From the NCBI GenBank assembly GCA_002410925.1, contig DHPR01000023.1, positions 1 through 32,120 on the forward strand: 32,120 bases of DNA, written 5' to 3'. Below the pieces are notes generated by a model. It ran no database searches. It was given only the letters and a program-made list of their open reading frames with translations, and had not been told where the DNA came from. Made by a program: the position numbers and the translations under genes. Shown here piece by piece: positions 2,292 to 32,052 of this stretch (the stretch's first letter is position 1; each line of letters opens with the position of its first letter). This DNA is from a bacterium UBP13_UBA5359. Its GTDB lineage: Bacteria > UBP13 > UBA5359.

Positions 2292-2987
2292 ATGTCAAAG
2301 ATTGGCATAGGAACAGGGCGAGAAAGACATAACCTAATAGGATTTACACTTATTGAATTATTGGTCGTTATTGCTATAGTTGCAATTCTTAGTGCTATAC
2401 TCTTTCCTGTCTTCGGCAATGCCAGAGAGAAAGCCCGGCAGGCTGCATGTGCCAATAACTTGAGACAGATAGGCATGGCAATAAGCATGTATACGGAGGA
2501 TTATGATGGCTATTTCCCAGCAGCGCTGAAACCGGGGGTGGCAAAATGGGCGGAATTGCCTACCTTCCCGATTCCGGCAATGGCAGGCTATGGCAAGATG
2601 CCGATAGTCGAGTTTCAAAGTGATGGAGTTCAAACAATATTTCGTTGCCCATCCATGCCGCCGAAGGCAAGAGTGCCGGCAACTGAAATGGGTTATACGG
2701 ATTACACCGTAAACGTTTATGTATTTGCTTATCCGGGGCATAGCACGCCAATTTTTGCTGCCTTCAAGAACCTATCGGATATACAACGGCCTTCTGAAAT
2801 ATTGATGGTAGCCGATAAAACAAAAACACGCCCAGATGGGCTGGCTTTTACAATTGCTTCTTATTCTACTTTTTTTGGTACCAATCATTCTGGCGGCGGA
2901 AATGCCTGCTTTGTAGATAACCATGTTGAATGGATGCGCCCATTCGGGATAACGGATAAAAACGTGGATTGGCGATTATCACCATAA
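2292..2987 (+). CDS. Prepilin-type N-terminal cleavage/methylation protein, DUF1559/H-X9-DG type (pilin-like 1)
   Basis: [48 protein letters not shown], and C-terminal [14 protein letters not shown] (H-X9-DN variant). Confidence 0.93.
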
Positions 2988-3058
2988 GCAAGATGGAGTT
3001 TCTAGTTTTTATTACATAGTTATTACGAAAATCTGAAATTATGGAGGGAATGTTACAA

Positions 3059-6000
3059 ATGAAAATTAGGGCATATATAGCTGTAGTGCTTCTTTATATT
3101 GCTATTACCTTTGCCGGTAGTTGTTTTGCTTGGGGAAACTCGTCTCAGCTTCCTCGAGTAGCGCTGATTTATAGTGATAGGTTGGAGAGCCCTTCTCCTA
3201 AAGATGATTATGATGGCATATGCGGCAAGCTGGGATGGGTATTGGGAAAGTGGGAAAACAGGCAAGTAAGCGAACTGATAAAAAAATTAGATACCTACGA
3301 TGTGGTTATCTGTGGTAGACAGTATAATCTAGCAAACAAGCAGAATTTCGCTATATATGCTCAGGAGTGGAAGGCTTTTCTGGAGCGAGGAGGGATAATT
3401 CTCGTTGCGCCGGTTATGGATAGTGATACGAACTGGATACATGCCCTTGGCTCAGGATTTTTATTCAAGACCGAATCTAGTGGCGGCGGTGGACAGAATA
3501 CCGTCACTAATCCGAATGCTGACATGAGTTTTGAAAAAGTTGTATCACGTTGGGCTGCATTTAAAGATTGGTCATCGGAATGGTCTGTTGCAAACAGCAC
3601 TCCGGAGGGTATGCCGATAGTCATGTACCAGAGAGTAGGCAAAGGGATTATACTTGTTTCCACTGCTTACAGGGCAGGAAATAGCAGTTGGAGTTTCCCC
3701 TCCGAAAAAGACCTGAGCAGTATTTGGAACTATATGATCATGGAGCGTAATAAGGCCTCCTCAGTGGAAGTATCATTGCTATCTTGGGGAGATATTTCTC
3801 TTGGAGAGAATAATGCCTCGGTCGATATTAAAAATTTACGCAAAGAAGCGATAGATATAGTTATCAATATAGGCTCTGTAAAAAACAGAGAAATAACCTC
3901 TTGCAATACAACCGTAGAAGGCCGTATTGCTGCTGAGGGATCAAAAGCCTTCTCTATCCCTTACCGTATAACAAGCGATATACCTGACTTTCTGTTTCTC
4001 ACAGTAGCGGAAACAGGAAAGGGAACCTATTTTAGAACATGGCAAGGCGTCAATATAGAGGATTTGAAAAGGCTAATTGAAAGCATCAATGAAAAGAATG
4101 GAAAAATCGATGAGGGCTTTAATTCAATAAGAAAGTTCTGTGAGAAAATCCCTTCTTTGGGATGGATGGTTGCATTTGCAAATAGGCATGTTTGTGAGAA
4201 GGGAGATATTGATAAAATACTGGAGAAGTTGGAGAAACAAGTAATAGCCATAGCGGCTGTTGGCGATAAGCAAGCGTGGAAGAGTAAGTCGCTGGCTATA
4301 CACGATGTGCTCGCAAAAATAAACACCGAAGCTTTAAAAGTAGAAATCATGAAGAAGAGATTAAAGTCTTACAATGGCCTGGAAAGCCAACTTATAGCAA
4401 GAACAGCTGTTATTGCCAGAGTAACTTCACCTTACGATAAAATTTTTTTTGATCAACCCTTCTCTCTCTCAAGTAGTGACAGCTTGAAGTTTAAAATGGC
4501 TGCCAACGAGTATGAGAACGCACAGCTTGTTCTTATTCCTATTTCCAGAGAGGTGAAGAATATAAACATATATTGTTCCGATTTAAAGGATGTAAGGGGG
4601 CGTAGAATAACCGCCGGCAACATTAAAGTATGGAGAGTCGGTTATGTATATGAACAGGGGAAATGGTATCCCGATCCTCTTATACCGTGTAATGAGACAA
4701 GTATCGAGGCCAATAAAGTTGTCCAACCTTTTTGGGTAACAGTCCATACGCCTCCGGGAACAATTGCCGGTGAGTATACAGGAGTATTAACTGTCAGGAC
4801 AGGGCAGCCTGAACAGAGTATCTCTGTTCCTATATCTGTAAGCGTGTGGGATTTTGAGGTGCCTCGGGAATTAAATTTTCCTACTGATGTTACGTTACGT
4901 GTTAATCTCTTGGCCCGTTTTTTCTTTGGCGATAAAGCGGCTGAAGAACCGGAGAAATATATATCTCCGCAACTATGCAGGAAATATATGGAATTTCTGC
5001 TTAGCTATCGTTTGACGCCGACAAGGCCTTGGAGTTTTGAGGGAAGTGCTTTGGCCGGTATCCCGTATCTAGGCTGGAAAGAGAAAAACGGCCGCTGGCT
5101 GTTTGATTTTAAGGAATATGATAAGAATATCCAACTTATTTTGAACAAAGGAGGCAAGATGTTCTGCGCAGCTACCTTGCCAGGAGTACACCTTGCCGCT
5201 GGGATGAATTCTGAGAAGCTGAATTTTTTGTCATTAGATGTATATATCCCGAAAATTTACGAGCATCTAAAGAAAAAGGGATGGCTGAGTAAAGCCTACT
5301 TCTATGGTTGGGATGAGCCGTCAGCCAGAGTGCTTGATAAGGTACAAGCAGAAGCCGTTTTGTGTAAGCAGCTTGCACCTGAAGTCAAGATATTGGTCCC
5401 TTATAATTTGGGAAATGTTCTGGAGAACGGTCACGAAGATTGCGCGGATATATGGGTGCCGATGAGAGGGCTTTGGCGCAAGTCTCTTGAGGCACTGAGA
5501 GTAAAGGATAAAATCGTCTGGGGTTATCAGTGCGGTGGCGCCACAGCCGGATCATTGTATGGAATACCTGGTCCTAATATAGATAAATATGCATTGTTGT
5601 GGGTTGTAGAGAAGCTAAACCTGGAGGGGTTTCTTTTTTGGGGTACTGTCAGCCCGTGGAGATATAATGGAATTAATGACATTGAAAGGGATGGAACTCC
5701 AAAAATATCTTGGCGCTCCGGTTTTGGCGATGGATTGCTGGCATATCCGGCCGGCCATAAACCTGAGGATGGGCTTAATCCCTCTTTACGCTTGGAATTG
5801 TTAAGGGATGGATTGGAAATGTGGGAGTATTTTCATCTTTTAAAATTGAGGATTGGTGAATTGGAACGTAATGACAAAAAAGATGAAAAAGACATGGCGC
5901 TACTGATTAAGGAAAGCAAGAGTATTATCAAAATCAGCGATGATTTGGTTAAAGACGAGATGACATATAGTAACGATCACGAAAGATATGCAGGCAAGAG

Positions 6001-6061
6001 GGCGCTTATAGCAGAAAAGCTTGAGAAGATTAATAGTTGTCTGAAGAAGCGATCCAGATGA
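3059..6061 (+). CDS. Large secreted putative glycoside hydrolase, DUF4091/GH123-like C-terminal half
   Basis: Sec signal peptide (MKIRAY..GSCFA/W). Motifs AANEYENAQLV, WYPDPL, QPFWVTVHTP..GEYTG, YGWDEP, GDGLLAYP, SLRLELLRDGLE. The N-terminal third has a GATase-like alpha/beta domain and a helical linker. ORF track start is 3041; ATG 3059 fits GGAGG at 3043-3047. Confidence 0.72.
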   Translation: MKIRAYIAVVLLYIAITFAGSCFAWGNSSQLPRVALIYSDRLESPSPKDDYDGICGKLGWVLGKWENRQVSELIKKLDTYDVVICGRQYNLANKQNFAIYAQEWKAFLERGGIILVAPVMDSDTNWIHALGSGFLFKTESSGGGGQNTVTNPNADMSFEKVVSRWAAFKDWSSEWSVANSTPEGMPIVMYQRVGKGIILVSTAYRAGNSSWSFPSEKDLSSIWNYMIMERNKASSVEVSLLSWGDISLGENNASVDIKNLRKEAIDIVINIGSVKNREITSCNTTVEGRIAAEGSKAFSIPYRITSDIPDFLFLTVAETGKGTYFRTWQGVNIEDLKRLIESINEKNGKIDEGFNSIRKFCEKIPSLGWMVAFANRHVCEKGDIDKILEKLEKQVIAIAAVGDKQAWKSKSLAIHDVLAKINTEALKVEIMKKRLKSYNGLESQLIARTAVIARVTSPYDKIFFDQPFSLSSSDSLKFKMAANEYENAQLVLIPISREVKNINIYCSDLKDVRGRRITAGNIKVWRVGYVYEQGKWYPDPLIPCNETSIEANKVVQPFWVTVHTPPGTIAGEYTGVLTVRTGQPEQSISVPISVSVWDFEVPRELNFPTDVTLRVNLLARFFFGDKAAEEPEKYISPQLCRKYMEFLLSYRLTPTRPWSFEGSALAGIPYLGWKEKNGRWLFDFKEYDKNIQLILNKGGKMFCAATLPGVHLAAGMNSEKLNFLSLDVYIPKIYEHLKKKGWLSKAYFYGWDEPSARVLDKVQAEAVLCKQLAPEVKILVPYNLGNVLENGHEDCADIWVPMRGLWRKSLEALRVKDKIVWGYQCGGATAGSLYGIPGPNIDKYALLWVVEKLNLEGFLFWGTVSPWRYNGINDIERDGTPKISWRSGFGDGLLAYPAGHKPEDGLNPSLRLELLRDGLEMWEYFHLLKLRIGELERNDKKDEKDMALLIKESKSIIKISDDLVKDEMTYSNDHERYAGKRALIAEKLEKINSCLKKRSR

Positions 6062-6149: not shown

Positions 6150-7457
6150 ATGAGAAAAATAATATCCTCTATCTGCATATTGTTGCTGGCGGCTTCTTTT
6201 ATGATGTTGTCTGGCTGCGGCAATAAAACTGAAGATGCCGACAAGGTCGTTATTTCCATAGCATGTACTTATTCGCCGACGGATACGGGATGTAAGATTA
6301 TCAATAAATCAATCGATGATTTCATGAAAATAAATCCCAGTATACAGGTGAAAAAGATGTGGTTTACCAAGGATTACTACCCTAAGTTGGCCACAATGAT
6401 TGCCGGTGGCACGCCCCCGGATATATTCAGAGTAAGTCCTGATATGGTTCCAATATATATACAAAAAGGTGTTGTGATGGCTTTAGATAGTTTTATCACC
6501 AAAAGTAACACGGTAAAGCTGGATGGGTTTTATCCGCAAGTCCTTTATAAATATATGTTCGACGGCAAAGTAATTGGTAAAGGGAAAATATATGGTTTTG
6601 GTACAGACTGGTCTCCTGATTATGCTCTATTTTACAATAAGGATATATTTGATAAAGCCGGACTGCCTTACCCGGATAGAAGCTTGAGTTGGAAAGAATT
6701 TAGAGATGCATCCCTAAAGCTGACAAGTAGGCAGGGGAAAAAGAGGGTGTTTGGGAGCTTGATAAATAACGTGTTCCTGCTGATCTATCAAAACGGGGGC
6801 CGGGTTTTTTCAAAGGATGGAAAGAAATGCCTGCTGGATAGCCCGGAAGCTATAGCAGCTTTTCAATATTTGGTCGACCTCAGAGTCAAAGACAAGGTTA
6901 TGCCTTCATATGCAGATATGCAGGAGGCCAGCCAACTGGAACTATTTCAGACTGGCAGGCTGGCTATGTTTCTATCCGGCAGATACTACGTTCCTATACT
7001 GAGAGATACTGTCAGCGGCTTTAGATGGGGAGTAGCTCCCGGGTTGCACAGCAAGGAGAGAGTCAACATGGTAACAGGCCCATGTGGCTGGGTGATGAGC
7101 AAGCGCACGAAGCATCCTGAAGCCGCCTGGAAGCTGATGGAGCATCTGGTGGTGGGAGATTGTGAAAAGGAGCTGGCCAAGGCCGGCTATAATATACCTG
7201 TAATCAAGAAGATAGCCGAATCGGAGCTTTTCCTAACCAATCCGATGCATCTGTCAGGGGTAAATAAAACCTTTATGGAGGAGGTGCGATATACTGTGCC
7301 CAGCCCGCTAACGCCATATCTGGCTACTGACAGATGGCAGAGCGTTGTCAAGGATGAATTGGATCTGGCTTATCTGGGAAAGCAATCTGCTGGGACTGCG
7401 GCGGTTAAGGCTGCTAAGATGATTAATCAGCTTCTTAGTGATGCAATGTCTCAGTAG
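6150..7457 (+). CDS. Sugar ABC transporter solute-binding lipoprotein (family 1)
   Basis: Lipobox LSG/C, AGGTPPDIF, LFYNKDIFDKAGLPYP..SW, FQTGRLAM, TKHPEAAWKLM. Confidence 0.92.
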   Translation: MRKIISSICILLLAASFMMLSGCGNKTEDADKVVISIACTYSPTDTGCKIINKSIDDFMKINPSIQVKKMWFTKDYYPKLATMIAGGTPPDIFRVSPDMVPIYIQKGVVMALDSFITKSNTVKLDGFYPQVLYKYMFDGKVIGKGKIYGFGTDWSPDYALFYNKDIFDKAGLPYPDRSLSWKEFRDASLKLTSRQGKKRVFGSLINNVFLLIYQNGGRVFSKDGKKCLLDSPEAIAAFQYLVDLRVKDKVMPSYADMQEASQLELFQTGRLAMFLSGRYYVPILRDTVSGFRWGVAPGLHSKERVNMVTGPCGWVMSKRTKHPEAAWKLMEHLVVGDCEKELAKAGYNIPVIKKIAESELFLTNPMHLSGVNKTFMEEVRYTVPSPLTPYLATDRWQSVVKDELDLAYLGKQSAGTAAVKAAKMINQLLSDAMSQ

Positions 7458-13266: not shown

Positions 13267-15522
13267 GTGAAAGCGCTTATTCCTTTCTATGCTATATTGG
13301 CGTTATGTATAAATACAGTCGGCTTCTGTGACGACAGCGTTTTAAACGGTGGAGGGCAGGAAATGCATGCTCTGGTAAATTCGGATAGCGGTGTGCCTCT
13401 TTTAATGCTCAATGATAAGCCTTTGCCGGTGATCGGCTATAGAGATCACCAGCCTGTTGCCCATATGGAAACCACTGCCAACTTTGCCAAGGCCGGGGTG
13501 CAAATCCATTTCCTGTCTATCAATCCCGGCGGCCGGGCATATCAGGGAGATGGGCTTTATAAGGGGATAGATAACGATGCTGAAAGAATCTTAAAAAAGT
13601 GTCCCGATACATACTTTCTGATCCTGGTTAGCGTAGATATTCTAAAAGCCAGAGAGCCGCGCTGGTTTGCCGGCAAAGCTGATCAGTTGGCAATTTGGCC
13701 GCCGAATATGCGCGAAGGTGATCGTGCCTCCATGGCATCCAAAATCTGGCGCGAAGAGGTAAAGGGCGATCTGCGCCGGCTCGTGCAACATGTGAAAGGC
13801 ATGCCGTATGCAGAGAGGGTATTGGGCTTTTTTTTAAGCGGCGGATCGGGTGAGTGGGGAGATTATTGGGATTACAGCACACCGGCCCGGCAGGGGTTCA
13901 TTGAATGGCTGAAAGCTGAATATGACGACGATGTTCAGCTTTTGCGAAAAAAATGGAATAATGCGGACGTTACATTTGAGAGAGTTACCATACCCGCCTG
14001 GAAGGAGCTGAGCCTGGCCGACGACGGCATCTTCTATTCCCCGAATAAGAGCCGGAGAATGATAGATTTTCTGACATACCATCATCAGCTGGCGGCGGAT
14101 GTAGCCATAGATTTCTGTAAGGTAATTAAGGAAGAGAGCGGTAATAAGAAACTGGCCGGACTCTGGAACGGTTATATGTTTTTGCCGGAGTGGTGGCAGG
14201 ATGGGGATGCAGCAGGCAATATAATCGCCAACAGAAGAGTAAAGATGTTCTCCCGAATACTGGAATCGCCCTATGTGGATTTTATCACCGCACCCTACTC
14301 ATATCAAGCAAGGCATAGCGGGGGCGCCTTCGTCTCTCAAATACCCCTGGACAGCATAATCCTGCATGGGAAACTCGCGCTTATAGAGGAGGACACAAGA
14401 ACATATCTTGTCACTCCGGCTCCGAATGCCGCGTATGCAACTTGGGGTGACAATTTTGGCCAGGCAGCTACCGAGAAAGAGACTATCGATATATGGAAAA
14501 GGAACTTTGCCGGGATTTTGACCAAACCGGGCAGCGGTCTATACTATTTCGGTCTTGGTAATGACGGTAATAAATGGTTTGACAGCCCGGCGCTTCTGAA
14601 AGCAGTGAGTAGCTTCAGGGAAATAGCCGGAACCACGCTTGCCAAAGATAAGAATGTTTCGAGCATTGCCGTTATCGTCAGCTACAGATCGTTCCTGTAT
14701 CAGAAAATAAATGATCTCAGCCGTGATTTTCTGCTCAATCAGATGTACCACAGTCTAACCATGATAGGCGCTCCGTTCGATATCTATCTGGATAGCGATC
14801 TTAGCAATAAAAACTTCCCGTTTGATAAATACAAGATGTATCTCTTTTTAAACAGCTTCTATCTGCCTGATGCAGAACGCAAGCTGATCAGGGAGAAGAT
14901 CTGCGGCAACGGTCATACGGTGGTCTGGCTTTATGGCAGCGGCTATGTCGGTGATGAGAATGCTCAGGTCGACAATATATCCGGCCTTACCGGTATAAAA
15001 GTGAGTAAATATGAAGGTAAGCTGACCCGCCTGAATTGCGTTATCGATAATTATACTCATGAAATAACCAAAGGTCTGCCCACCTATATGCGCTTCGGGT
15101 GCGAGAGAACGTTGGAACCGGTCTTCTGGGTTGATGACCCCGAGGCCCAGATTCTGGGCGAGCTATCCTGCACTACAAATGAAGGAGCAGTATTTACTTT
15201 TAGAAAACCCGGCCTTTGTATGAAGCGTTTCAAGGATTGGACATCGATATGGTCGGGAGTTCCTAACCTGCCGTCCCCCTTGCTGAGAAATATAGCCAAA
15301 TCCGCCGGCGTTCATATTTATAGCGAAGGGGATGATCAGGTCTTTGCCAGCGAGAGAGTATTTTCAATTCACGCCGGATATGACGGAGTAAGAAAAATAA
15401 GCTTCCCGCGTAAAACCACTATCTATGATCCCTTTAAAAAGGAATATGTCGCACGCAATGTGGATAAAGCGGAGAAATTTATGAAGAAGGGCGATACCTT
15501 GTTCTGGTTACTAAGCATGTAG
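13267..15522 (+). CDS. Secreted GH42-like (beta-galactosidase-like, clan GH-A) glycoside hydrolase
   Basis: GTG start with GAGGAGG RBS and a signal peptide. Motifs SMASKIWR, GGSGEW, DYS..ARQGFIEWLK.EY..LRKKWN, EEDTRT, and a trimerisation-like C-terminal domain (YKMYLFLN..VVWLYGSG). Confidence 0.72.
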   Translation: MKALIPFYAILALCINTVGFCDDSVLNGGGQEMHALVNSDSGVPLLMLNDKPLPVIGYRDHQPVAHMETTANFAKAGVQIHFLSINPGGRAYQGDGLYKGIDNDAERILKKCPDTYFLILVSVDILKAREPRWFAGKADQLAIWPPNMREGDRASMASKIWREEVKGDLRRLVQHVKGMPYAERVLGFFLSGGSGEWGDYWDYSTPARQGFIEWLKAEYDDDVQLLRKKWNNADVTFERVTIPAWKELSLADDGIFYSPNKSRRMIDFLTYHHQLAADVAIDFCKVIKEESGNKKLAGLWNGYMFLPEWWQDGDAAGNIIANRRVKMFSRILESPYVDFITAPYSYQARHSGGAFVSQIPLDSIILHGKLALIEEDTRTYLVTPAPNAAYATWGDNFGQAATEKETIDIWKRNFAGILTKPGSGLYYFGLGNDGNKWFDSPALLKAVSSFREIAGTTLAKDKNVSSIAVIVSYRSFLYQKINDLSRDFLLNQMYHSLTMIGAPFDIYLDSDLSNKNFPFDKYKMYLFLNSFYLPDAERKLIREKICGNGHTVVWLYGSGYVGDENAQVDNISGLTGIKVSKYEGKLTRLNCVIDNYTHEITKGLPTYMRFGCERTLEPVFWVDDPEAQILGELSCTTNEGAVFTFRKPGLCMKRFKDWTSIWSGVPNLPSPLLRNIAKSAGVHIYSEGDDQVFASERVFSIHAGYDGVRKISFPRKTTIYDPFKKEYVARNVDKAEKFMKKGDTLFWLLSM

Positions 15523-15547
15523 ATTATTTAATGTGAGGTGATTGCAG

Positions 15548-16216
15548 ATGAAGAGGAATAAAGGAACTCAGGGATTTACGGTAAATGAATTACTGACAAT
15601 GATCTCAGCTATCGTATTATTAACCGCCATAGCGCTTCCGGTATTCTCCAAAGTCAGAGCGGGCAGCGAAGAGGCCACATGTATGAATAACCTTAGGCTT
15701 ATAGGGGCTGCGTTAAAGATGTATGCGGAGGATCTGGGGGGCGGTTCGGCTTTCCCTCCGGTTTATAATCCCTCGGGTGTAGCCGGTCAGGGAAGATACT
15801 GGGTGGATTTTTTGGCTCCATACGCTGAGGCAAAGGGAAAATACGATAAAACTGCCAGGCCTTGCTATGCCGGTACAATCTTCGATTGCCCCAGTCTTAA
15901 GGATTACTCTGCGACTATGGTAACGGATTATGCTTATTTCAGAGTACTATGGGCAAATTCCGGTAATGCTGCAAATGATATCAAAGATATCAAGAAACCG
16001 CAGGAGGTAGGTATAATTGCCGATGCGGAATTCTTTACAGACGGGACCCCACCGTCAGCTAGAATTGGAACGCCGGGAGTTTCCAATAGCCGGACCATAT
16101 TAAGAAACAGACATAACAACGGTCTTAACATACTCTATTGTGACGGGCATGTAGAGCACGTGTCGGCTCAAACGGGTGATAATTTAAGGGACATATTCGA
16201 TGCTTCCAGGCATTGA
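15548..16216 (+). CDS. Prepilin-type DUF1559/H-X9-DG protein with non-canonical N-terminal helix (pilin-like 2)
   Basis: [57 protein letters not shown] track start is 15542; ATG 15548 fits the GAGGTG RBS. Confidence 0.9.
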   Translation: MKRNKGTQGFTVNELLTMISAIVLLTAIALPVFSKVRAGSEEATCMNNLRLIGAALKMYAEDLGGGSAFPPVYNPSGVAGQGRYWVDFLAPYAEAKGKYDKTARPCYAGTIFDCPSLKDYSATMVTDYAYFRVLWANSGNAANDIKDIKKPQEVGIIADAEFFTDGTPPSARIGTPGVSNSRTILRNRHNNGLNILYCDGHVEHVSAQTGDNLRDIFDASRH

Positions 16217-22462: not shown

Positions 22463-22511
22463 TTGACACAGGAGCATGACAGCCTTATACTGGTACAGTA
22501 AGATGTACCAG
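22463..22511 (+). promoter_or_regulatory. Promoter/operator cassette copy 1
   Basis: TTGACA (22463), 17 bp spacer, TATACT (22486). The overlapping perfect palindrome CTGGTACA-GTAAGA-TGTACCAG spans 22490-22511. Confidence 0.88.
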
Positions 22512-22699: not shown

Positions 22700-25600
22700 T
22701 TGAAAACTTACAGATATGCTTTGATCATAATTGCAGTGATCTTATGTCCCTGCGCTTCTCACGCCAGGACGCCGAAAGGGCTTGAAAAAGAGGTAAAGTC
22801 CTTGCCGATGGCGATATTCTCGCAACGTCTCGACATATCGAAGGCCGTCGATGAGACCGGAAGATGGAAGTATGTAAAGATCAAGGAAGCGCCCGATGTG
22901 AATCTTCTTACAGGTTCGGGTGAATCTGGCTATATTCCCTTTACGGTTATCTCTCCCGGCAGGCACAGCATCTGGCTCAGGTTTTATACCGATAAAGATA
23001 GAGCCGCCAACATTCTGGCGATCGTGCGTGCTCCTAACGGAGAGGCTCTTTGTGCTGAGCGTATCGATGCACCGATTCACAGGCTCAACCCGGCCAAACC
23101 TTATCTTGAGCAGAAGATCAGCCGTGAAGCAGGATTCCGCTTCTGCAGGTTCGAGACGGTATTTGAATATCCCGGTGCATATTCTATTAACCTTTCCAAC
23201 GCCGTCGTCCGCGAAGGAGGCAGACGACTTATCGAAAGCATCTACATAAGCAACGACGCGGCTTTCGATCCGGCCGTGAAACCCGCCGTTTCGACGATGC
23301 CGCCTCAAGCGATTGCAGGGGTTCCCGCAGGCTTTTTGCCGGCAAAGGTTTATCCGCTGTATGTTTCCCTTTATACCGGCATCCGGGATGCAAAAAAACG
23401 ATTCAAAACGGGGCTGATTCAAAACGGGGCCGTATACCTCGATCCCTCTGCCATGGTATTGATGGGTGTCACGCACCAGCAGGGGATATGGTGTGGCAAC
23501 GAAAAGATAAATTGCGGCCTTCTTACCTTCGGGCTTGGGGGCACACTCTATGGTAACAGCCCTGCGTTTGTAAAATCCGCCAAGTCCCCGGAAGGGCGCT
23601 TCGTCAATGCCGAAGGGACCGTAGGTTCCGGATTCAGCCTTTCCTATGATCCTGCCTTGCAGGATGCCCTGGCGAACGGCAGGGAGAATATGCTCAAGTT
23701 GATTGGCGACAGGGCGATGGACAGGACGATAGATGCCTGGTGCATCTGCGGCGAGGCAGGCGGAAATCTTGATTATAGTTCTTATTCCGTGGAGAAATTC
23801 CGCGCCTGGCTGAAGGATAAATACAGCACCATCGAAAGGCTGAACAGCGCCTGGCGTTCCGATTTCAAGGACTTTACAGCTATATATCCGGCAAAGAATC
23901 CTGAAGAGAATAAGACCAACTGGCTGGAATTCCGCGATTTTTCAAGCAAGTTATTTGCAACGGGCATAACACAGTCGGTCAAAACCGTCAATTCAGCCGA
24001 TCCTTTGAAGAGGCCGGCGACAACCCAGCTTTCCAACCTTGATCTCTTTGCCTCCGACTATGCCCGTTTCCGTCCGAACAACTTTGAGGATATGATCCTT
24101 ATCGGTCTTAAAGAGACCGATAACATAGGCTGGGACGCCTACTGCGCCGATGATTATATGGGTGCCGAGATGGACCTGATGGATTCCCTCGGCCGCGGCA
24201 AGAAGATGCTTCAGCGAGAGTTCAATACCCATAATCAGAATGTGGAGATTGCCGCCCGCACATACTGGACGATCTTTGGCAAGGGCGCCAAGGGTATTTC
24301 GCTTTTCCAGTTTCATGAAGGCGGAGGGCACGATTCTTACCCGAAATGGGCGCTGACCAACAAGGATATGACCCCGCGTGACAAGCTGGGCGCCTTCAGC
24401 GATCAGATGCAGGAGATCCACCGCATGGAAAACATCGTCGCCGGGGCCAGGAAGATCTATCCGGTGAAACCGGTGGCCATATTCTACAACAAGATAGATA
24501 TGACCCTCTCGAAGGCGCCGCTTGCTTCGTCGTGGGGAGAAGGCATCGATACTCCTTACCATCTCTACGAAATGCTTCGCGGGCGCGGCTATCCGGTGAC
24601 CTTCACTACCGACAGCCAGATCCGCGACGGCTTCCTGAAGAACTTCAGCGCGGTGGTCTTTGCCGATGCGCAGCATATATCCGCCGAGGCCTGCGACAGA
24701 ATAGTCGAATGGGTCAATGCCGGCGGCACGGTCATAGGAGATACCTGGCCGGGCGCCTATACGGAATTGGGGCATCGCCAGAATACTCTTCTTGATCTAT
24801 TCGGCATTCGTCCCCGCGATATCAAAAAAGTGGATAAGATAAAGCTGGAGGAATCCCCTCAGGGTTACGGAGAAATAACCGTAACCGCTATAAACCCCGA
24901 CACCCTTTACAACACGGTCATGGAGACGTGGCAACAGTGGGATTCTCAGCATCCGGTCGCCAGGAAGACCGGCAACTGGATGTTCAGCGGTTACGGCCGG
25001 TCGGATATTGTTTGTACGGCCGGAGAGGTTGTGGGCATGGTATTCGACGGGCATCCCGGTGCGGTTATCAACCGCACCGGTAAAGGGCATAGCCTCTATA
25101 TCTCCACGATGCTGGGATCACTCTACGGAGGCGCTGCTTCCAGGTATGAATGGGATTCTGCCCATTCCGATCTATCGGCGCCTCGCCTGCTTGATGCCTT
25201 TCTGGAATTTGCCGGCATCAAAAAGCTTTCCGTTGCCGGACTTTCGGAACTGCAAGCATACAAGCTGCGTGTCGAGGCCCCGCTGATCGACGAGAAGGGC
25301 AACGGTATTGTCACCATGGTAAGCTACAATGATACCCCTCTTCCGGCATTTCATTTGAAAGTCGCCTGGCCTGCCGGGGTCAAGCTTCCTGTAAAGATAT
25401 TCAGCGTGACCGGGGGAAGCCGGAAAGCGGTGGAACTTCCTTTCAAGTTCACTAACGGCAGCATCGAGCTGGATGTGCCGGGGTTCAACTCGCATGCCGC
25501 GCTTCTGGCGATCAGCGATTCCGTTCCTCTGCTCTCCCTGGAGTTTACAGATGCGAGCCGCGGCGTTGCCGGCCTGGTCACCATGACCCCGAACAGGAAA

Positions 25601-25873
25601 GCAAAGGTCAGGGTTACCGTTCATAACGTCTCCGGCAAAGCGGTCTCCGGCAGGGTTACGGCCCGTATTCCCGAAGGCTGGTTCTATGACAAAGAGTCGG
25701 TTGCTGTAGGAAAGATAGCCCCCTGGCGGTCGGCGACAGCTGTCTTTACGATCAAAGCGCCCTCCTTCTGTGCGGCCAGGCGGGTTCGCCCGATCTCCTT
25801 TCTCTTCGAGGGCGACAGAGCATGCTCTATGCCGGCAACCGAAGCGGTCTGGTGGCAGGCAAAAGAAAAGTAA
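22700..25873 (+). CDS. Large secreted multidomain GH42-like glycoside hydrolase
   Basis: Signal peptide from TTG 22700 after GGGAGG; the 22523 extension in the ORF track is regulator debris. Motifs DYS..SVEKFRAWLKDKYSTIERLNSAW, WLEFRDF, QREFN, GAKGISLFQF. It has a trimerisation domain (PVAIFY..WVNAGGTVI) and a C-terminal NEW3-like Ig domain (VTVHN..PEGW). Confidence 0.8.
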   Translation: MKTYRYALIIIAVILCPCASHARTPKGLEKEVKSLPMAIFSQRLDISKAVDETGRWKYVKIKEAPDVNLLTGSGESGYIPFTVISPGRHSIWLRFYTDKDRAANILAIVRAPNGEALCAERIDAPIHRLNPAKPYLEQKISREAGFRFCRFETVFEYPGAYSINLSNAVVREGGRRLIESIYISNDAAFDPAVKPAVSTMPPQAIAGVPAGFLPAKVYPLYVSLYTGIRDAKKRFKTGLIQNGAVYLDPSAMVLMGVTHQQGIWCGNEKINCGLLTFGLGGTLYGNSPAFVKSAKSPEGRFVNAEGTVGSGFSLSYDPALQDALANGRENMLKLIGDRAMDRTIDAWCICGEAGGNLDYSSYSVEKFRAWLKDKYSTIERLNSAWRSDFKDFTAIYPAKNPEENKTNWLEFRDFSSKLFATGITQSVKTVNSADPLKRPATTQLSNLDLFASDYARFRPNNFEDMILIGLKETDNIGWDAYCADDYMGAEMDLMDSLGRGKKMLQREFNTHNQNVEIAARTYWTIFGKGAKGISLFQFHEGGGHDSYPKWALTNKDMTPRDKLGAFSDQMQEIHRMENIVAGARKIYPVKPVAIFYNKIDMTLSKAPLASSWGEGIDTPYHLYEMLRGRGYPVTFTTDSQIRDGFLKNFSAVVFADAQHISAEACDRIVEWVNAGGTVIGDTWPGAYTELGHRQNTLLDLFGIRPRDIKKVDKIKLEESPQGYGEITVTAINPDTLYNTVMETWQQWDSQHPVARKTGNWMFSGYGRSDIVCTAGEVVGMVFDGHPGAVINRTGKGHSLYISTMLGSLYGGAASRYEWDSAHSDLSAPRLLDAFLEFAGIKKLSVAGLSELQAYKLRVEAPLIDEKGNGIVTMVSYNDTPLPAFHLKVAWPAGVKLPVKIFSVTGGSRKAVELPFKFTNGSIELDVPGFNSHAALLAISDSVPLLSLEFTDASRGVAGLVTMTPNRKAKVRVTVHNVSGKAVSGRVTARIPEGWFYDKESVAVGKIAPWRSATAVFTIKAPSFCAARRVRPISFLFEGDRACSMPATEAVWWQAKEK

Positions 25874-25880
25874 CAGGCAT

Positions 25881-25929
25881 TTGACAAAAAAGCATGACAG
25901 CCCTATACTGGTACAATAAGATATACCAG
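25881..25929 (+). promoter_or_regulatory. Promoter/operator cassette copy 2
   Basis: TTGACA (25881), 17 bp spacer, TATACT (25904). Operator CTGGTACA-ATAAGA-TATACCAG (25908-25929). Confidence 0.88.
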
Positions 25930-26053: not shown

Positions 26054-26767
26054 ATGAAAAGAATTAATTCGGGTTTTACACTTACAGAGTTTCTGGTCGC
26101 TATTGCCATTACTGCTTTGCTGTCTGCCATACTTTTTCCGGTATTCAGCAGAGCCCGGGCTAAAGATCAACAGGCAGCCTGTGCAAGCAATCTCAAACAG
26201 ATATATAATGGCCTCATGATGTATGCCGCCGATTACGACGGCAATCTGCCGTTGGCGGACGCCAATCAGCAGGGCTACGGATGGGCATTGGCAATACTGC
26301 CCTATTCGACCGGTACCAAGCAGGGCAACGTCTTTCCGGCAGATGGTATCTTTACCTGCCCGGCCGCTGTTCTGCTGTTTCCGAGCCCTCCCAACCCTGA
26401 TCACTGGCGGTTGACTTACGGCTTCAATATTTATGTGGGCACGTATGGCGGCGGCTCCTTGATATCCGGAAACGTGCCTGCGGGGTTGCAGGCGGCGAAG
26501 GAGGGGCCGCATGCGGACAGGGTGGTGCTGTGCATGGATTCCTTACACCATAGTATTACCTGGCCCGGATCTGAAATTATCTGGTCCAATCCGAACTATA
26601 CCTATGCGCATAATGAGAATAAGGCGGCACGTACGGCGGAGGTCAACGTACTTTTTATCAACGGCAATGTAAGGCGTCTCAAATACCCGGAAGAGAAGGG
26701 CACTTGCATGATCGGGCCCTATCTGCGCACTGCCGGCCCGCATGTGTATGAAGAGTTTCCCCGTTAA
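26054..26767 (+). CDS. Prepilin-type DUF1559-like protein (pilin-like 4)
   Basis: [47 protein letters not shown], and C-terminal [20 protein letters not shown]. Confidence 0.92.
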   Translation: MKRINSGFTLTEFLVAIAITALLSAILFPVFSRARAKDQQAACASNLKQIYNGLMMYAADYDGNLPLADANQQGYGWALAILPYSTGTKQGNVFPADGIFTCPAAVLLFPSPPNPDHWRLTYGFNIYVGTYGGGSLISGNVPAGLQAAKEGPHADRVVLCMDSLHHSITWPGSEIIWSNPNYTYAHNENKAARTAEVNVLFINGNVRRLKYPEEKGTCMIGPYLRTAGPHVYEEFPR

Positions 26768-26931: not shown

Positions 26932-26952
26932 GGGCGGGCCTGAGGCCCGCCC
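26932..26952. terminator. GC-rich hairpin
   Basis: GGGCGGGCC-TGA-GGCCCGCCC, a perfect 9-bp stem. The U-tail is weak, so terminator function is uncertain. Confidence 0.45.
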
Positions 26953-27154: not shown

Positions 27155-27202
27155 TTGATAAAAAACATGACAGCTCTATACTGGTACAATAAGATATATC
27201 AG
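27155..27202 (+). promoter_or_regulatory. Promoter/operator cassette copy 3 (regulator's own promoter)
   Basis: TTGATA (27155), 16 bp spacer, TATACT (27177). Operator CTGGTACA-ATAAGA-TATATCAG (27181-27202). Confidence 0.82.
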
Positions 27203-27222
27203 GTAGCGTGCGGGTGATATTT

Positions 27223-28320
27223 GTGAAAGAAAAACAGCATGTAATTTTAAATAACAAGATCAATCAAGAGAGTCCTGTTCCTGCTTTTTGGCAGATAAGC
27301 CAAACTATAACGGAAGCTATAAGGCTGGGTAATTATAAAAAGGGGGACAGGTTGCCGTCCGAGCGGCAGTTGTCCCTCTTCTTTAATGTTGCCAGGGGAA
27401 CCGTAAGGCATGCTCTGGAACATCTGGTTGCCGAAGGAATCCTGGTAAAGGAGGCCTCTCGGGGTGTATTTATCGGTGATGTATCCCCGGCCAACGCCAG
27501 GATGCACAAGATAGGTTTTGTAACCTGGCATATCAGGGGAGTGGAATTTCATCTGGCGACGCTGGAAATTCTGCGGGGAATAAATGATGCTCTGGAGCAA
27601 CAGGATTACAGTTTGGAGATGCTGACTGTAGATCCATTTATGCTGCCGAAGATAAAAGAGATCGTTTCCAGAAAAGGCTGGGAAGGCATAATTTTGGTAG
27701 GCCAGCAATTTTCGGATAGCACGATCAGGGAATTGAGCCGAGAAACGGTGCTGGTTTCCAGCCGCGCGGAGGCCGATTTCAAGGTGCTCATCGATTATCA
27801 GGATGCTGCATACCGGGTGACCGAGCATTTATTGGCATTGGGGCATCGTCAAATCGCCTTGATCAATGGAAAAAAAGAGCTGCCTGTGGTTGGAGCGATC
27901 TGCGCCGGCTATCACCGGGCTCTGGCGGAATACGGTGTTGCTGCGGACAGCCGCTTGATACGGTGCGACAGCTACGATCCCAAAGCAAGCTGGACATTTA
28001 CCAGGGATCTTCTGTCATCAAACAATCCCCCTACCGCCATAATTACAGGGGACGATTATATGGCTGTCGCCGCCTTGCAGGCCATGAAAGAGCTGGGAGT
28101 TGCTTGTCCCGACGATCTTTCACTGGCGTCATTCAATAATTTCAACTTTACGGAATATACCAATCCTTCTCTGACTACTTTTGCTGTCCCCTTTTCTGAA
28201 TTGGGCAGAGAGCTGGCCGGTTTGTTGAAAATGAGAATAACCGGAGAGGATGCTCAATCGGAAAAGATCCTGCGTGGCCGGCTGATTGTCAGGCAATCCA
28301 CGGCTGCGGCAAAGAGATGA
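27223..28320 (+). CDS. AraR-type transcriptional regulator (GntR wHTH plus LacI-type sugar-binding domain)
   Basis: GDRLPSERQLS..FNVARGTVRHAL..L..EG, then HLLALGHRQIALI, PPTAIITGDD, PDDLSLASFNN, PSLTT, LIVRQST. ORF track start is 27208; GTG 27223 is preferred because it is conserved in the remnant copy at 22532. Confidence 0.93.
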   Translation: MKEKQHVILNNKINQESPVPAFWQISQTITEAIRLGNYKKGDRLPSERQLSLFFNVARGTVRHALEHLVAEGILVKEASRGVFIGDVSPANARMHKIGFVTWHIRGVEFHLATLEILRGINDALEQQDYSLEMLTVDPFMLPKIKEIVSRKGWEGIILVGQQFSDSTIRELSRETVLVSSRAEADFKVLIDYQDAAYRVTEHLLALGHRQIALINGKKELPVVGAICAGYHRALAEYGVAADSRLIRCDSYDPKASWTFTRDLLSSNNPPTAIITGDDYMAVAALQAMKELGVACPDDLSLASFNNFNFTEYTNPSLTTFAVPFSELGRELAGLLKMRITGEDAQSEKILRGRLIVRQSTAAAKR

Positions 28321-28370: not shown

Positions 28371-29081
28371 ATGAAAAGGAGAGCTTCAGGCTTTACTCTT
28401 ATAGAGCTCCTGGTTGTTATTGCCATTATCGCTTTGCTGTCTGCCATGCTTTTTCCGGCATTCAGCAGGGCCCGGGCCAAAGCCCAGCAGACAGCCTGCA
28501 CAAGCAATCTCAAACAGATATATAACGCTCTTATGATGTATGCCGCCGATTACGACGGCAATCTGCCGTTGTCGAACGCCAATCAGCAGGGCCATGGATG
28601 GGCATTGGCAATACTGCCCTATTCAGTCGGCACCAAGCAGGGCAACATCTTTCCGGCGGGCAGTATCTTTACCTGCCCGGCCGCTGTTTTGCAATATCCG
28701 AGCCCTCCCAACCCCGATCACTGGCGGTTGACTTACGGCTTCAATGTTTTCGTGGGCATGTACGATGGCGTTGGTGTAATGGGTAACAAGCCTGCGGGGC
28801 TGCAGGCGGCGGAGAACGGGCCGTATGCAGACAGGGTGGTGCTGTGCATGGATTCCTACCACCATAGCATTACCCATCCCTACTCTGAAATCACCTGGTC
28901 CAGCTTAAGCTATACTTATGCGCATAATGAGAATAAGGCGGCACGTACGGCGGGGGTCAATGTACTTTTTATCAACGGCAATGTAAGGCATCTCAAATAC
29001 CCGGAAGAGAAGTACACTTGCATGATCGGGCCCTACCTGCGCACTGCCGGCCCGCATATCTATGATGAGTTTCCCAATTAA
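28371..29081 (+). CDS. Prepilin-type DUF1559-like protein (pilin-like 5), close paralog of pilin-like 4
   Basis: [29 protein letters not shown]. About 80% aa identity to 26054..26767 (about 47 differences in 237 positions by hand). Confidence 0.93.
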
Positions 29082-29115
29082 ATCTATTTTATCAATCAAC
29101 AAGGAGGTCTTGGGT

Positions 29116-32052
29116 ATGCGTTTGATAGCTCTGGCAATTGCAGCGATACTGGCGGCTCTCTGCCCGGCAGGCATCGCCCGGGGGCAGAATAATAATACGG
29201 TTGTTGTCGATGAGCCGTTGGGGGCAAGGTACAGCCTGGGCATGACGCTATGGCATATGGGCCATAACGTGGAGATGATCGCACGTTTTCACGATTATGT
29301 CCGGCAGGCCGGATTGGCCCCGGAAAAGTTGCTGCCGGTCGCTGATCTCAAACCGCCGGCGTCTGTGGTGCGGATACTGGTGGAGCCGGAATTGCTGGGC
29401 AATGAAAACCTCAACGGCTGGAAGGCAAACGGTGATTATATTGTTGCTCCCGGCGGTGACGGCGGGCCCACCACGGCTATCTCGCTCTTTGTGCCGCGGG
29501 CCGGGCTTTATCGGTTGTGGGTACAGTACCATGCTAGAGTCGGCGGGCGCGGGGTCACCTTTATGAAGATCTATCGCGCCGGGCAGGAAGAGCTCGGTCC
29601 TGTTTGCCAGCCGGATGAACTCTATGATATGCCGCCGGCCGTCACCGGGCCGGCCTGGAAGGATATGCTTGTCGACCTGCCGGCAGGCGAGCTGATCATC
29701 AAATTCGGTCCCGTCCTAAATGTATGGCACGGCAAAGGCAGCTATGATCAGCGCCAGGTGGATTGCCTTTATCTGACGGATGAGCTGTGGGCGGAGCCGC
29801 CGTCGGCCGATATTCGCAGGGCTATGAGAGAAGCGAAATCTCCCGTCGGTATTCAGTGGATAGTCAACGCGCCGCTGTCGCCGGCCGATATCGATACCTG
29901 GCGATGGTGGCAGGTGCGTCCTCTGTCCTGGGAGGAGGCCGGGGCCAATCCGCGGCTCTTTGATCTGAGCCGCCGCTTCTGGCAGGAGACCGTCGACAAG
30001 CTGTCTTTGCAGGAATACGAGGAGAAGGATAAGCCCGATTACCGTCTTCCGGAGCGGCAGGTGATTTACAACGATACCTGGAATATGGTGGCCAATCTCG
30101 TAAGAGCACGGAGGCAGATCGAGACTCTCAATGCCGATATCAGCCGCAGGGAGCTCGGCTATCGGTATGTCTGGCACGATGTGGCCGGTAATATCGACGG
30201 TCTGCGTGCCGATACTCGGTATGACAAAGACGGGCCTTATGCCCGATACGGCGGTTGGTTCCGTTGGTCCCATGCCGGCGGGTGTCTCTATGCCTCATAC
30301 GGTGCGTCTCGGGGCACGGTAACGACCTGGGTGCCGGTAGCCGAGCCGGGAACGTATACCGTATGGGTGCTTTCCAACCCGGTGAACCTGAGCTATACCG
30401 CGCCGTGGTACGGCAAAGTCAGCGTCGATGGTGTGGAGCAGTTCACTTATCATCATGCCGGAAAGATCTCCGCGGTGTGGATGAAGATGGGCGAAGCAGT
30501 CGTACAGAAGCCCGGCCGGGTGCAGGTGGACTTTATTCTGGATGGAGCCGGCTCGGGAGGGACCGACCGGCGTATCTATACCCTCTTTTTGGTAAACGAT
30601 GCGACGATTCTTCCCAACGGCACCGTGCGTCCGCCGTGGACAATGGATATGTACCGCCGGCGGGCAGCCGCCGCCGGCGCTCAGGACAAAGATAAATTGT
30701 TGCTTTGGCTGAGCGAGGATCCCTATCGTCCTCTTTCCCAGGAAGTTTGGGCAGATCGCACCTCTGCCGGGGACAGCTGGCCTCATGAGCCGATCAGGGG
30801 TACCGTGCGGGCCAAAGAGATGTTGATGGCACGTGATACACAGGCCGCCGTGCAGGTCGGCCTGCGTAATCTGACGGACAAACCTCTTCTTCTGGAGGTG
30901 CAACCCGGCCCGCTGCGCGGAAAGGGAGGCGTCTTTCGCGGGGCCGTCACCTGGCGGACGGAAGCCTTTGTGCCTTATGGTGCGGACAGGCAGCAGTGGA
31001 CGCCGTTTTTTCTCATGCGCAGACCGAATATCACCGTTCCGCCGTTGAATGTGGCCGGGGTATGGCTTACCGTGGATACCCGGCAGGTGCCCCCCGGAGA
31101 TTACGAGGTCGCAGTGATCTTCCGCGGCCGCGGCATACCGGCATATACCGTTATGCTCAAGGTGCGTATCTCTGCCGTAAAACCGGAACCGAGGCAGCCC
31201 GTTTTAGTGAACGGCTGGACGCGGCCGCATGAAGGAGAGGCGTACCTGCGTGATTTCGTCGAGCATGGCATGAACGTCTGGTACGTTCACGCCGGCAGCC
31301 CGATGAGCAAGGCGGATATGCAGAAGTGGGGTATCCGTCAACTTCACTTGCATTGCGGCGGCATGCAGGGTATTCCCGAATGGCTGGCCAACCTCAAAAA
31401 ACTGGGTTTGAAGTATGACGATTATTTTATAGGCATCAAAGACGAGCCGAACGCCGGTACGGAGGAAAAACTGAAGCCCTATCTGGAGATTGCCGAAGAG
31501 ATACGCAAAGCGGACCCAAAGGTGCGCATAAGTTTCAATCCTGCGGAAGAGGCTACATTGGCGACCTTTCAGATTCTTGATAAATATTGCGATTTCTGGC
31601 TGCCTTATACAAAGCATGTCTTTTCACCGTACTACGATAACCCGGCCAAACGAGCGCTTTATCATCCCAAGCCGTGGATGTGGTATACCACTCCCTGCTT
31701 ATGGGACAAGACTGCTCGCGATCCGGGCATTCGTCAGGTGCCGTCGCAACCGGGCAATTGTGTGGGAGTAGCCTTTTTTGCGCTTAATTACCCTTGGCGT
31801 GATCAGTGGGACACCGGCTACGAGCACATTTCCGATGCTTCTACCATGGGGGCGGTTATCTCCCGCCATGGTCCGGTGGCCACGATCGTCTGGGAGCAGA
31901 TTCGCGAAGTTCTGCAGACCGCCAATCTGGCGATGATGGTACGGGAACGTCTGGGGGTCAGGACTTTTAACGAAGTAACCGATACCGATATGCAGAGATT
32001 GATCCGCGAAGGCACCTCGGCGGAACTGATACGCTGGCTGGAAACACATTAA
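29116..32052 (+). CDS. Large secreted protein, putative glycoside hydrolase (two CBM-like modules plus a GH123/DUF4091-like barrel)
   Basis: Signal peptide MRLIALAIAAILAALCPAGIARG from ATG 29116 after AAGGAGG (ORF track start 29062). Repeated VPRAGLYRLWV and VAEPGTYTVWV modules, then GVWLTVDT..VPPGDY, GIKDEP, DFWLP, WWYTT. Confidence 0.62.
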   Translation: MRLIALAIAAILAALCPAGIARGQNNNTVVVDEPLGARYSLGMTLWHMGHNVEMIARFHDYVRQAGLAPEKLLPVADLKPPASVVRILVEPELLGNENLNGWKANGDYIVAPGGDGGPTTAISLFVPRAGLYRLWVQYHARVGGRGVTFMKIYRAGQEELGPVCQPDELYDMPPAVTGPAWKDMLVDLPAGELIIKFGPVLNVWHGKGSYDQRQVDCLYLTDELWAEPPSADIRRAMREAKSPVGIQWIVNAPLSPADIDTWRWWQVRPLSWEEAGANPRLFDLSRRFWQETVDKLSLQEYEEKDKPDYRLPERQVIYNDTWNMVANLVRARRQIETLNADISRRELGYRYVWHDVAGNIDGLRADTRYDKDGPYARYGGWFRWSHAGGCLYASYGASRGTVTTWVPVAEPGTYTVWVLSNPVNLSYTAPWYGKVSVDGVEQFTYHHAGKISAVWMKMGEAVVQKPGRVQVDFILDGAGSGGTDRRIYTLFLVNDATILPNGTVRPPWTMDMYRRRAAAAGAQDKDKLLLWLSEDPYRPLSQEVWADRTSAGDSWPHEPIRGTVRAKEMLMARDTQAAVQVGLRNLTDKPLLLEVQPGPLRGKGGVFRGAVTWRTEAFVPYGADRQQWTPFFLMRRPNITVPPLNVAGVWLTVDTRQVPPGDYEVAVIFRGRGIPAYTVMLKVRISAVKPEPRQPVLVNGWTRPHEGEAYLRDFVEHGMNVWYVHAGSPMSKADMQKWGIRQLHLHCGGMQGIPEWLANLKKLGLKYDDYFIGIKDEPNAGTEEKLKPYLEIAEEIRKADPKVRISFNPAEEATLATFQILDKYCDFWLPYTKHVFSPYYDNPAKRALYHPKPWMWYTTPCLWDKTARDPGIRQVPSQPGNCVGVAFFALNYPWRDQWDTGYEHISDASTMGAVISRHGPVATIVWEQIREVLQTANLAMMVRERLGVRTFNEVTDTDMQRLIREGTSAELIRWLETH

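Follow-up and report, generated by a model that had tools for sequence, protein, structure and literature searches.

Prepilin genes beside exported glycosidase-like genes

Contig DHPR01000023.1 of the bacterium UBP13_UBA5359 (phylum UBP13; assembly GCA_002410925.1) carries five genes for short prepilin-type proteins of the DUF1559/H-X9-DG family, adjoined by genes for four large, exported, glycosidase-like proteins. The window analysed here is this whole contig (C39; 32,120 nucleotides), taken from a genome of 2.25 Mb in 40 contigs that is 98.4% complete. We find that sugar regulators, pilin genes and glycan enzyme genes stand together in this genome far more often than chance would allow, and that another contig encodes a type IV pilus machine with a member of the family as its pilin. 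We tentatively propose that the pilins are alternative subunits of one pilus, each of which would be induced with the enzymes for a particular glycan.

The original prediction, made from the window's sequence, described five DUF1559/H-X9-DG-type prepilin genes paired with large secreted glycosidases, and this description holds. PF07596 was found in all five pilins and PF07963 in four of them (Table 1), and the four large neighbouring proteins have hydrophobic, signal-like N-termini and resemble glycoside hydrolases (GH), two being GH123-like and two GH42-like. According to Pfam, the remaining genes encode cytoplasmic sugar enzymes, one ABC binding protein and a GH130 phosphorylase. With GH123-like, GH42-like, GH130 and GH63-like genes, a regulator combining GntR and periplasmic-binding-protein domains, and an ABC binding protein, the window has the composition of a carbohydrate-active enzyme (CAZyme) gene cluster. 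Pfam annotation covered 22 window proteins and, as had been noted before, no SusC/SusD, TonB-receptor, PilB/PilC, secretin or prepilin-peptidase family match was found among them. Window genes are denoted below by their first position or, for the pilins, by their number in Table 1.

Table 1. Genes and regulatory sites of the window that are discussed in the text
Feature	Position	Strand	Basis
Pilin 1, prepilin-type DUF1559-like	2292..2987	+	PF07596 E 3.3e-9, PF07963 E 4e-7
Exported GH123-like protein	3059..6061	+	GH123_cat E 4.8e-17, GH123_N E 1.5e-8
ABC transporter sugar-binding protein	6150..7457	+	SBP_bac_1 E 9e-35; same gene run as 3059-6061
Exported GH42-like protein	13267..15522	+	homologues with PF02449; no Pfam match of its own
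Pilin 2, with H-x9-DG	15542..16216	+	PF07596 E 8.7e-7; TIGR04294 24.4 bits (cut-off 19 bits)
Pilin 3, typical family member	16256..16927	+	PF07596 E 3.6e-12, PF07963 E 3.6e-9; TIGR04294 24.6 bits
Cytoplasmic GH63/MGH1-like glycosidase	16911..19091	+	MGH1-like_GH E 4.9e-30; overlaps end of pilin 3 by 17 bases
Promoter/operator copy 1, before GH42-like gene	22463..22511	+	sigma-70-like site 11/12; exact operator-pattern match
Exported GH42-like protein	22700..25873	+	Glyco_hydro_42 E 7.8e-12
Promoter/operator copy 2, before pilin 4	25881..25929	+	promoter-like site 11/12
Pilin 4, without His and Asp of H-x9-DG	26054..26767	+	PF07963 E 1.9e-6, PF07596 E 7.4e-5
Terminator-like hairpin 3' of pilin 4	26932..26952	+	nine G-C pairs
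Promoter/operator copy 3, before regulator 27208	27155..27202	+	promoter-like site 10/12
Regulator of sugar-sensing repressor type, GntR helix-turn-helix with LacI-like periplasmic-binding-protein fold	27208..28320	+	Peripla_BP_3 E 4.5e-34, GntR E 8.2e-15
Pilin 5, without His and Asp of H-x9-DG	28371..29081	+	PF07963 E 5.8e-9, PF07596 E 5.2e-8
Exported protein with predicted GH123 fold, Pfam-less family	29116..32052	+	AF2 model and Foldseek

A conserved stem and divergent heads

Calling genes with a codon-bias heuristic yielded 1914 genes in the genome, among which a hidden Markov model (HMM) of the family identified 40 pilin genes, 38 full-length and two truncated. The truncated genes (C17:1136-1393, 85 residues; C40:56190-56444, 84 residues) encode the stem only and are probably pseudogenes or remnants.

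In an alignment of the 38 paralogues Phe+1 and Glu+5 are invariant and the Gly of the cleavage site is nearly so; two Cys and three Tyr are invariant as well. The N-termini have the features of a class III signal peptide, namely a short basic leader, Gly-1, Phe+1, Glu+5 and a hydrophobic N-terminal part of helix alpha1. The stems are nearly invariant among the paralogues, and the heads average 23% column identity. Head composition is enriched in Trp (2.7-fold), Tyr (2.1-fold) and Asn (2.1-fold), which is only suggestive of sugar binding.

All five window pilins reach the PF07596 cut-off of 23.3 bits, with 23.4-47.3 bits over profile positions 2-72 only of 268; pilin 4 is borderline, scoring 23.4 bits in one scan and 20.2 in another. 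The motif H-x9-DG is exact in 29 of the 38 paralogues and incomplete in three of the five window pilins. In pilin 1 the C-terminal motif reads H-x9-DN and TIGR04294 reaches 15.8 bits against its cut-off of 19 bits, which pilins 2 and 3 pass; pilins 4 and 5 gave no match to this model. The family as a whole is very large: a profile search at E <= 1e-30 returned 42,915 clusters at 50% identity.

An AlphaFold2 (AF2) model of pilin 3 (predicted local distance difference test, pLDDT, 82.9; predicted template modelling score, pTM, 0.80) has the pilin fold. In VIA-align its best 25 matches were all pilins or pseudopilins, at modest Z scores of 6.2 to 2.8. Foldseek, run with the same model on the PDB, found nothing at E <= 1e-3, and the head had no sequence match there.

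Pilin 2 stands apart by a degenerate alpha1 stem (GFTVNELLTMISAIVLL) in a region that is otherwise nearly invariant in the family. Its orthologue in a genome of the same genus (G002) is 71% identical and has a degenerate stem too. Pilin 2 may be a specialised minor or tip subunit.

One operator heads three units

Two pilin genes had been described as sitting behind the same operator as the GH42-like gene; this is true and goes further, as one operator heads three units. A 37-base element is present at 22475-22511, 25893-25929 and 27166-27202; in it, the palindrome CTGGTAC...GTACCAG overlaps a near-consensus promoter. It was found three times in the window, in none of 100 shuffles and nowhere else in the genome. 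The three copies are the three best promoter-like sites within 21300-32120, and the strongest terminator-like site of that region comes after pilin 4. The first copy heads the GH42-like gene 22700, the second a pilin unit that apparently, as judged from these signals, consists of the single gene of pilin 4, and the third an operon of regulator 27208, pilin 5 and the GH123-fold enzyme 29116. We infer that the genes of this operon are co-transcribed and that regulator 27208 would bind the operator copies. Pilins 4 and 5 are 81% identical and stand under the same operator, and they adjoin different enzyme families (GH42-like and GH123-fold, respectively), which points to the regulon or substrate, not the enzyme, as the partner of the pilin.

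Regulator, pilin and enzyme genes co-localise across the genome

To place the window in its genomic context, the neighbours of all pilin genes within two genes were scanned against Pfam and compared with a control of 119 genes, 118 of them non-pilin, in 17 random runs of seven consecutive genes. A sugar-type regulator lies immediately upstream of 23 of the 40 pilins and of 1 of the 118 controls (Fisher p = 7e-16), and that single control gene itself adjoins a pilin. The 23 regulators comprise 13 with a GntR helix-turn-helix (HTH) and a Peripla_BP domain, four LacI, four AraC, one GntR-UTRA and one DeoR.

The downstream side shows the same trend. Two pilins lie at contig ends and have no downstream gene, leaving 38 for this comparison. 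A gene with a GH, carbohydrate-binding module (CBM) or Laminin_G_3 domain follows immediately in 18 of them (17 at E <= 1e-5), as against 7 of the 118 controls (p = 3e-8). A test independent of Pfam gave a similar picture: a same-strand downstream protein of at least 600 residues with a hydrophobic N-terminus was found for 15/38 pilins and for 77/1837 other genes (p = 4.5e-11). Laminin_G_3 proteins are likewise concentrated near the family, 10 of the 21 lying within two genes of a pilin against a background of 7.4%. Co-localisation of pilin genes with CAZymes and sugar regulators is thus far above chance genome-wide. Together with the shared operator, the recurrent order of regulator, pilin and enzyme indicates that the pilin genes are co-regulated with glycan enzymes.

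A type IV pilus machine is present and the SusC/SusD route is wanting

The original prediction placed the assembly machinery elsewhere in the genome, and it is found there: contig C1 encodes PilB, PilT, PilC, PilD, PilM and a secretin, in a cluster that also holds three pilin-like genes. Contig C13 carries a canonical, complete type II secretion system (T2SS), GspD through GspM and including GspG. The genome further contains a Tad-like set, as read from the positions of family matches only, a third PilB-like ATPase and four secretins. Three tandem genes for PilT-like retraction ATPases lie at C23:13734-17016, besides the PilT gene of the pilus cluster.

To which of these machines the family is related was asked with a head-only HMM; it was built from 37 orphan pilins, trimmed of the alpha1-N segment and not including the C1 pilin. 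In the C1 cluster it matched the first pilin at E 7e-16, along the entire head with its Cys pair and H-x9-DG, as compared with E 1.5 for the genome's GspG. The family thus counts the pilin of the pilus cluster, and not the T2SS pseudopilin, among its paralogues. A GspG identity was likewise rejected on profile scores, since TIGR01710 and PF08334 gave 16.4-41.5 bits against an equivalog cut-off of 88.85, and matched the N-terminal helix only.

The absence of a SusC/SusD route, first noted for the window, extends to the whole genome. PF07980 (SusD) has no match in it, and PF00593 has a single one, on contig C23, the only TonB-dependent receptor.

Neighbouring enzymes and their origin

The 13267 protein had no sequence match in the PDB, and its assignment comes from its relatives. 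PF02449 (GH42) is present in 11 of the 31 proteins listed for it, the query's own record included, and an Atlas feature score of 0.99 links it to clusters in which about half of the members carry PF02449. It is 41% identical to the C-terminal 750 residues of C40_132955, which follows another pilin. An 85%-identical homologue (P0002, 867 residues) and the in-genome paralogue C40_132955 each have an additional LamG domain at the N-terminus, and enzymes of this type seem to gain and lose such domains rapidly.

The 29116 protein, of about 970 residues, had no Pfam match and no sequence match in the PDB. Among the Foldseek matches listed for its AF2 model (pLDDT 89.0, pTM 0.88), the best 18 are all GH123 beta-N-acetylgalactosaminidases or beta-N-acetylhexosaminidases, at E 2.4e-21 (8k2j) to 4.7e-15, with 5l7u at E 1.5e-20 and template modelling scores (TM) of 0.53-0.60 by target. 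The model thus predicts a GH123 catalytic-domain fold, preceded by about 400 residues of extra beta-sandwich domains, and the protein is a putative enzyme. Besides its own record it has 87 homologues, 37-71% identical and none with a Pfam domain; those with named sources come from Planctomycetota, Omnitrophota, Lentisphaerota and Armatimonadota. The family is strikingly conserved, with 55-71% identity in 60 of the 87.

A search of 60 other genomes, which included the two of the same genus, gave nothing matching the 29116 enzyme at E <= 1e-10. In guanine-plus-cytosine (GC) content, the 29116 (0.578) and 3059 (0.424) enzyme genes fall outside the genome's 5th-95th percentile range of 0.427-0.551, and the pilin genes are not outliers. 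Given its GC content and the lack of a match in the two genomes of the genus, the 29116 gene was probably acquired horizontally. The contrast between outlying enzyme genes and unremarkable pilin genes, taken with the comparisons in the next section, suggests that enzymes came in behind pilin genes that were already in place.

Is the neighbouring enzyme the partner of the pilin?

An alternative to glycan binding is that each pilin serves the glycosidase next to it, which it would dock, display or help to export, the pilus acting as a scaffold or as a cargo-matched export piston. The head would then bind the enzyme, for example through a LamG or CBM-like N-terminal domain, and not the glycan. 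Such a partnership would fit with the immediate downstream gene, which usually encodes a large signal-peptide protein, and with the Laminin_G_3 proteins, 8 of 21 of which directly adjoin a pilin. It would also fit with the clade of pilins 2, 3 and C40_136041, which travels with the enzyme pair 13267/C40_132955 in an arrangement shared by the two other genomes of the genus.

Relatives of the enzymes in other organisms, however, need no pilin. None of 34 metagenome loci of the 29116 family (37-74% identical) with at least 800 nt of upstream sequence has a pilin there, and only one of 59 loci of this family shows a class III signal motif. For homologues of 13267 in one Lentisphaeria and one Armatimonadota genome, a pilin was seen at 1 of 10 loci, within flanks of only 1.5 kb. 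Inside the genome, too, the 81%-identical pilins 4 and 5 stand beside different enzyme families, the GC values suggest enzymes plugged in behind resident pilins, and export is already served by a complete canonical T2SS with its own GspG-K. Predicting a complex of 13267 (residues 25-751) with the head of pilin 3 (residues 36-223) gave a score of 0.00, which is no verdict either way. The enzyme-docking explanation is weakened by these results, and we regard it as unlikely.

Other features of the window

The reading frame of the first GH123-like gene opens at 3041, and its signal peptide is read from 3059 (N-terminus MKIRAYIAVVLLYIAITFAGSCFA). Gene 22700 likely starts with the TTG at that position, which follows a GGGAGGG ribosome-binding site. 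The translation of 16911-19091 has no signal peptide, so this enzyme is cytoplasmic, a correction to the first reading of the sequence.

Two neighbouring genes of the glycan operon (9938-11089 and 11096-12289) encode proteins of about 390 residues that have no Pfam family, one of them with a weak match to Reg_prop repeats; a paralogous pair on contig C2 is 34% and 43% identical to them. The 1-kb gap upstream of 13267 (stretches 12566-12623 and 12990-13049) contains a long perfect hairpin, GAAGCAAAACAGCCGGTA...TACCGGCTGCTTTTGCTTC, and a promoter of consensus sequence (TTGACA, 17 nt, TATAAT), behind which TTATAAGCAG stands twice as a tandem direct repeat. This repeat may be the operator of the operon formed by 13267 and the two pilin genes behind it; no regulator gene was found near it.

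Discussion

A proposed sugar-induced pilus for glycan capture

We regard it as a serious possibility, falling somewhat short of probable, that the products of the five genes are alternative subunits of a single retractile type IV pilus, each induced together with the enzymes for one glycan. A sugar-sensing repressor, usually a GntR HTH fused to a LacI-like sensor and in other operons of the LacI, AraC or DeoR type, would release an operon in which the regulator is succeeded by the pilin, an exported glycosidase and, in many cases, an ABC binding protein with cytoplasmic sugar enzymes. The induced pilin would be cut by PilD and built into a fibre by the single PilB/PilC/PilM/secretin machine of contig C1; cleavage and assembly should be possible because the cleavage site and hydrophobic stem of the family are nearly invariant. 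The fibre would display the divergent, Trp/Tyr/Asn-rich head, and the head would, most likely in our view, bind the inducing polysaccharide or particles carrying it. Retraction driven by PilT could then bring the polymer to the cell surface and to the co-expressed enzymes, such that capture by the pilus would stand in for the SusC/SusD route that is wanting in this genome. As the most likely function of the heads, glycan capture is plausible, and we treat it as putative.

The pilins had been proposed to be substrate-specific subunits of a shared pilus that take the glycan-capture role of SusD. Co-regulation with glycan enzymes, a machine encoded elsewhere and the family link to that machine's pilin bear out part of this proposal; substrate specificity and glycan binding of the heads are putative, and a SusD-like role cannot be extended to the family at large. 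A bolder version, in which about 40 interchangeable heads, each induced by a different sugar, would make one retractile type IV pilus a device for fishing and taking up polysaccharides, much as the competence pilus takes up DNA, seems to us improbable.

Several observations weigh against glycan capture by such a pilus. Of the 40 pilin genes, six lie outside any glycan context, one of these within the pilus cluster, and several pilins have a cytoplasmic-type enzyme as their first downstream gene. The aromatic-rich composition of the heads derives in part from conserved structural Tyr and Trp. In Mantel tests head divergence was uncorrelated both with that of the regulator (r -0.07, p 0.64, n 17) and with that of the downstream protein (r -0.01, p 0.54, n 20); these null results may be due to saturation, and would then neither support nor exclude specificity. 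Gene and signal-peptide calls are heuristic.

The family's wider distribution belongs with these points. The three species genomes of the phylum that were examined, all of one genus, have 29 to 51 PF07596 matches each. From other phyla we sampled 77 family loci with crude gene calls, found a pilin open reading frame in 70 of them, and scanned 63 upstream and 63 downstream genes. A sugar regulator stood upstream in 1/63 cases, and a glycan-type gene downstream in 5/63 and upstream in 4/63. The loci with glycan-type neighbours come from Armatimonadota, Lentisphaeria and Phycisphaerae, plus one Isosphaeraceae and one unclassified Planctomycetota locus. With regulators and glycan-type genes so few in this sample, the cassette characterises certain lineages, in which it is enriched, and not the family as a whole, and a SusD-like role cannot be generalised to the family, most sampled members from other phyla lying outside glycan loci.

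A different arrangement was seen among ten planctomycete and verrucomicrobial loci (L067, L091, L097, L099, L115, L118, L125, L126, L129 and L130). Most of them have a DUF1559 gene of about 280-390 codons, followed on the same strand, within the limits of the crude gene calls, by an open reading frame of 110-220 codons without a Pfam family. The small open reading frame behind these longer DUF1559 genes may be a different conserved partner in those lineages.

Alternative explanations

Besides enzyme docking, three further explanations were considered. Sugars might raise or vary the pilus subunits for adhesion, biofilm formation or motility on particles in a non-specific way, the variety of heads then reflecting antigenic or phage-receptor variation and not glycan specificity. 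Such remodelling would agree with heads that diverge without tracking regulators or enzymes, with orthologous pilins that diverge somewhat faster (69-71% identity) than a neighbouring enzyme (79%), and with the many kinds of context in which family members occur in other phyla. Keeping some 23 distinct sugar regulators, each tied to a pilin of its own, would nevertheless be costly for a generic function, and a pilin with a dedicated single-gene unit under a local operator is hard to account for in this way; we consider remodelling distinctly unlikely.

The proteins might also not be fibre subunits at all and remain anchored in the inner membrane by alpha1, acting in the periplasm, for instance in sensing or in handing oligosaccharides over to ABC transporters. 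ABC binding proteins in several of the operons, the frequent position of the pilin as first gene after the regulator, and the historical Pfam name of the family, SBP_bac_10, would be in line with such a role. The fold, however, is that of a pilin and not of a solute-binding protein, Glu+5 and the cleavage site needed for filament assembly are conserved, and the family includes the pilin of the type IV pilus cluster itself, all of which makes this explanation highly unlikely.

That the genes adjoin by chance, both families being abundant in this genome, is hardly credible. One could cite for it the wealth of CAZymes and the 7 of 118 random genes with GH, CBM or LamG domains, but it was rejected on the three enrichment p values and the operator common to pilin and glycosidase units.

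Relation to known systems

The proteins resemble type IV pilins of the PilA type and GspG in their class III signal (cleavage between Gly and Phe; Glu+5), long alpha1 helix and beta-sheet head. Structural matches of the pilin 3 model include PilA4 (6xxd, Z 6.2), a type IVb pilin (9iuf, 5.5), EpsG (4lw9, 5.3) and PulG (5wda, 4.2). Unlike PilA or GspG, they number 40 paralogues in 2.25 Mb, 39 of these outside machine clusters and most under sugar regulators. With the DUF1559/H-X9-DG family of the Planctomycetes-Verrucomicrobia-Chlamydiae (PVC) bacteria (PF07596, TIGR04294) they share the N-terminal PF07596 match and, in 29 of 38, the H-x9-DG motif. They are short, at about 210-250 residues, and the planctomycete and verrucomicrobial DUF1559 members sampled lie mostly outside glycan loci.

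Polysaccharide-binding type IV pilins are known from cellulolytic Firmicutes, such as PilA of Caldicellulosiruptor and CbpC/GP25 of Ruminococcus albus. Competence pili carry DNA-binding minor pilins such as ComP, and their retraction brings the polymer in; ComP (5hz7, Z 5.0) is among the structural matches of the pilin 3 model. In these bacteria polymer-binding pilins number one or a few per genome, not one per sugar regulon as here.

The loci share with the polysaccharide utilisation loci (PULs) of Bacteroidota a substrate-sensing regulator, a small surface protein, exported glycosidases, import components and the existence of many parallel loci. They differ from SusC/SusD-based PULs in that the small protein is a pilin, import involves ABC binding proteins, and the window has no SusC/SusD pair.

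Boedeker et al. (2017, PMC5394234) describe gold-labelled dextran that binds to pili-like fibres of the planctomycetes Planctopirus limnophila and Gemmata obscuriglobus and enters the periplasm. These fibres originate at crateriform structures, and no genes are assigned to them. Fibres thus bind a polysaccharide there, and the polymer reaches the periplasm without a SusC-type route; a link to DUF1559 is conjecture. Our literature searches returned no paper that links the DUF1559/H-X9-DG family to glycan operons and none on its function.

Significance

Few uncharacterised families in the PVC group, Armatimonadota and related phyla are as large as DUF1559/H-X9-DG, and the pattern of pilin, regulator and enzyme gives it a testable role in polysaccharide handling. 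The negative results matter too: the pairing is enriched in certain lineages, not family-wide, and in other organisms the neighbouring enzymes do without a pilin. The genome described here is a clean test case: it is small and nearly complete, and most of its 40 members are individually tied to sugar regulators. It also offers a local regulon with a defined operator, a single type IV pilus machine with a pilin of the family, and essentially no TonB or SusC/SusD systems.

If the heads bind glycans, they would represent a second general design for polysaccharide capture beside the Bacteroidota PUL. An uptake device, if it exists, would explain how polymers are transferred to or across the outer membrane without SusC/SusD. 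It could also reveal which genes underlie the planctomycete fibres that bind glycans, and would provide a function for part of a family of at least 43,000 sequence clusters.

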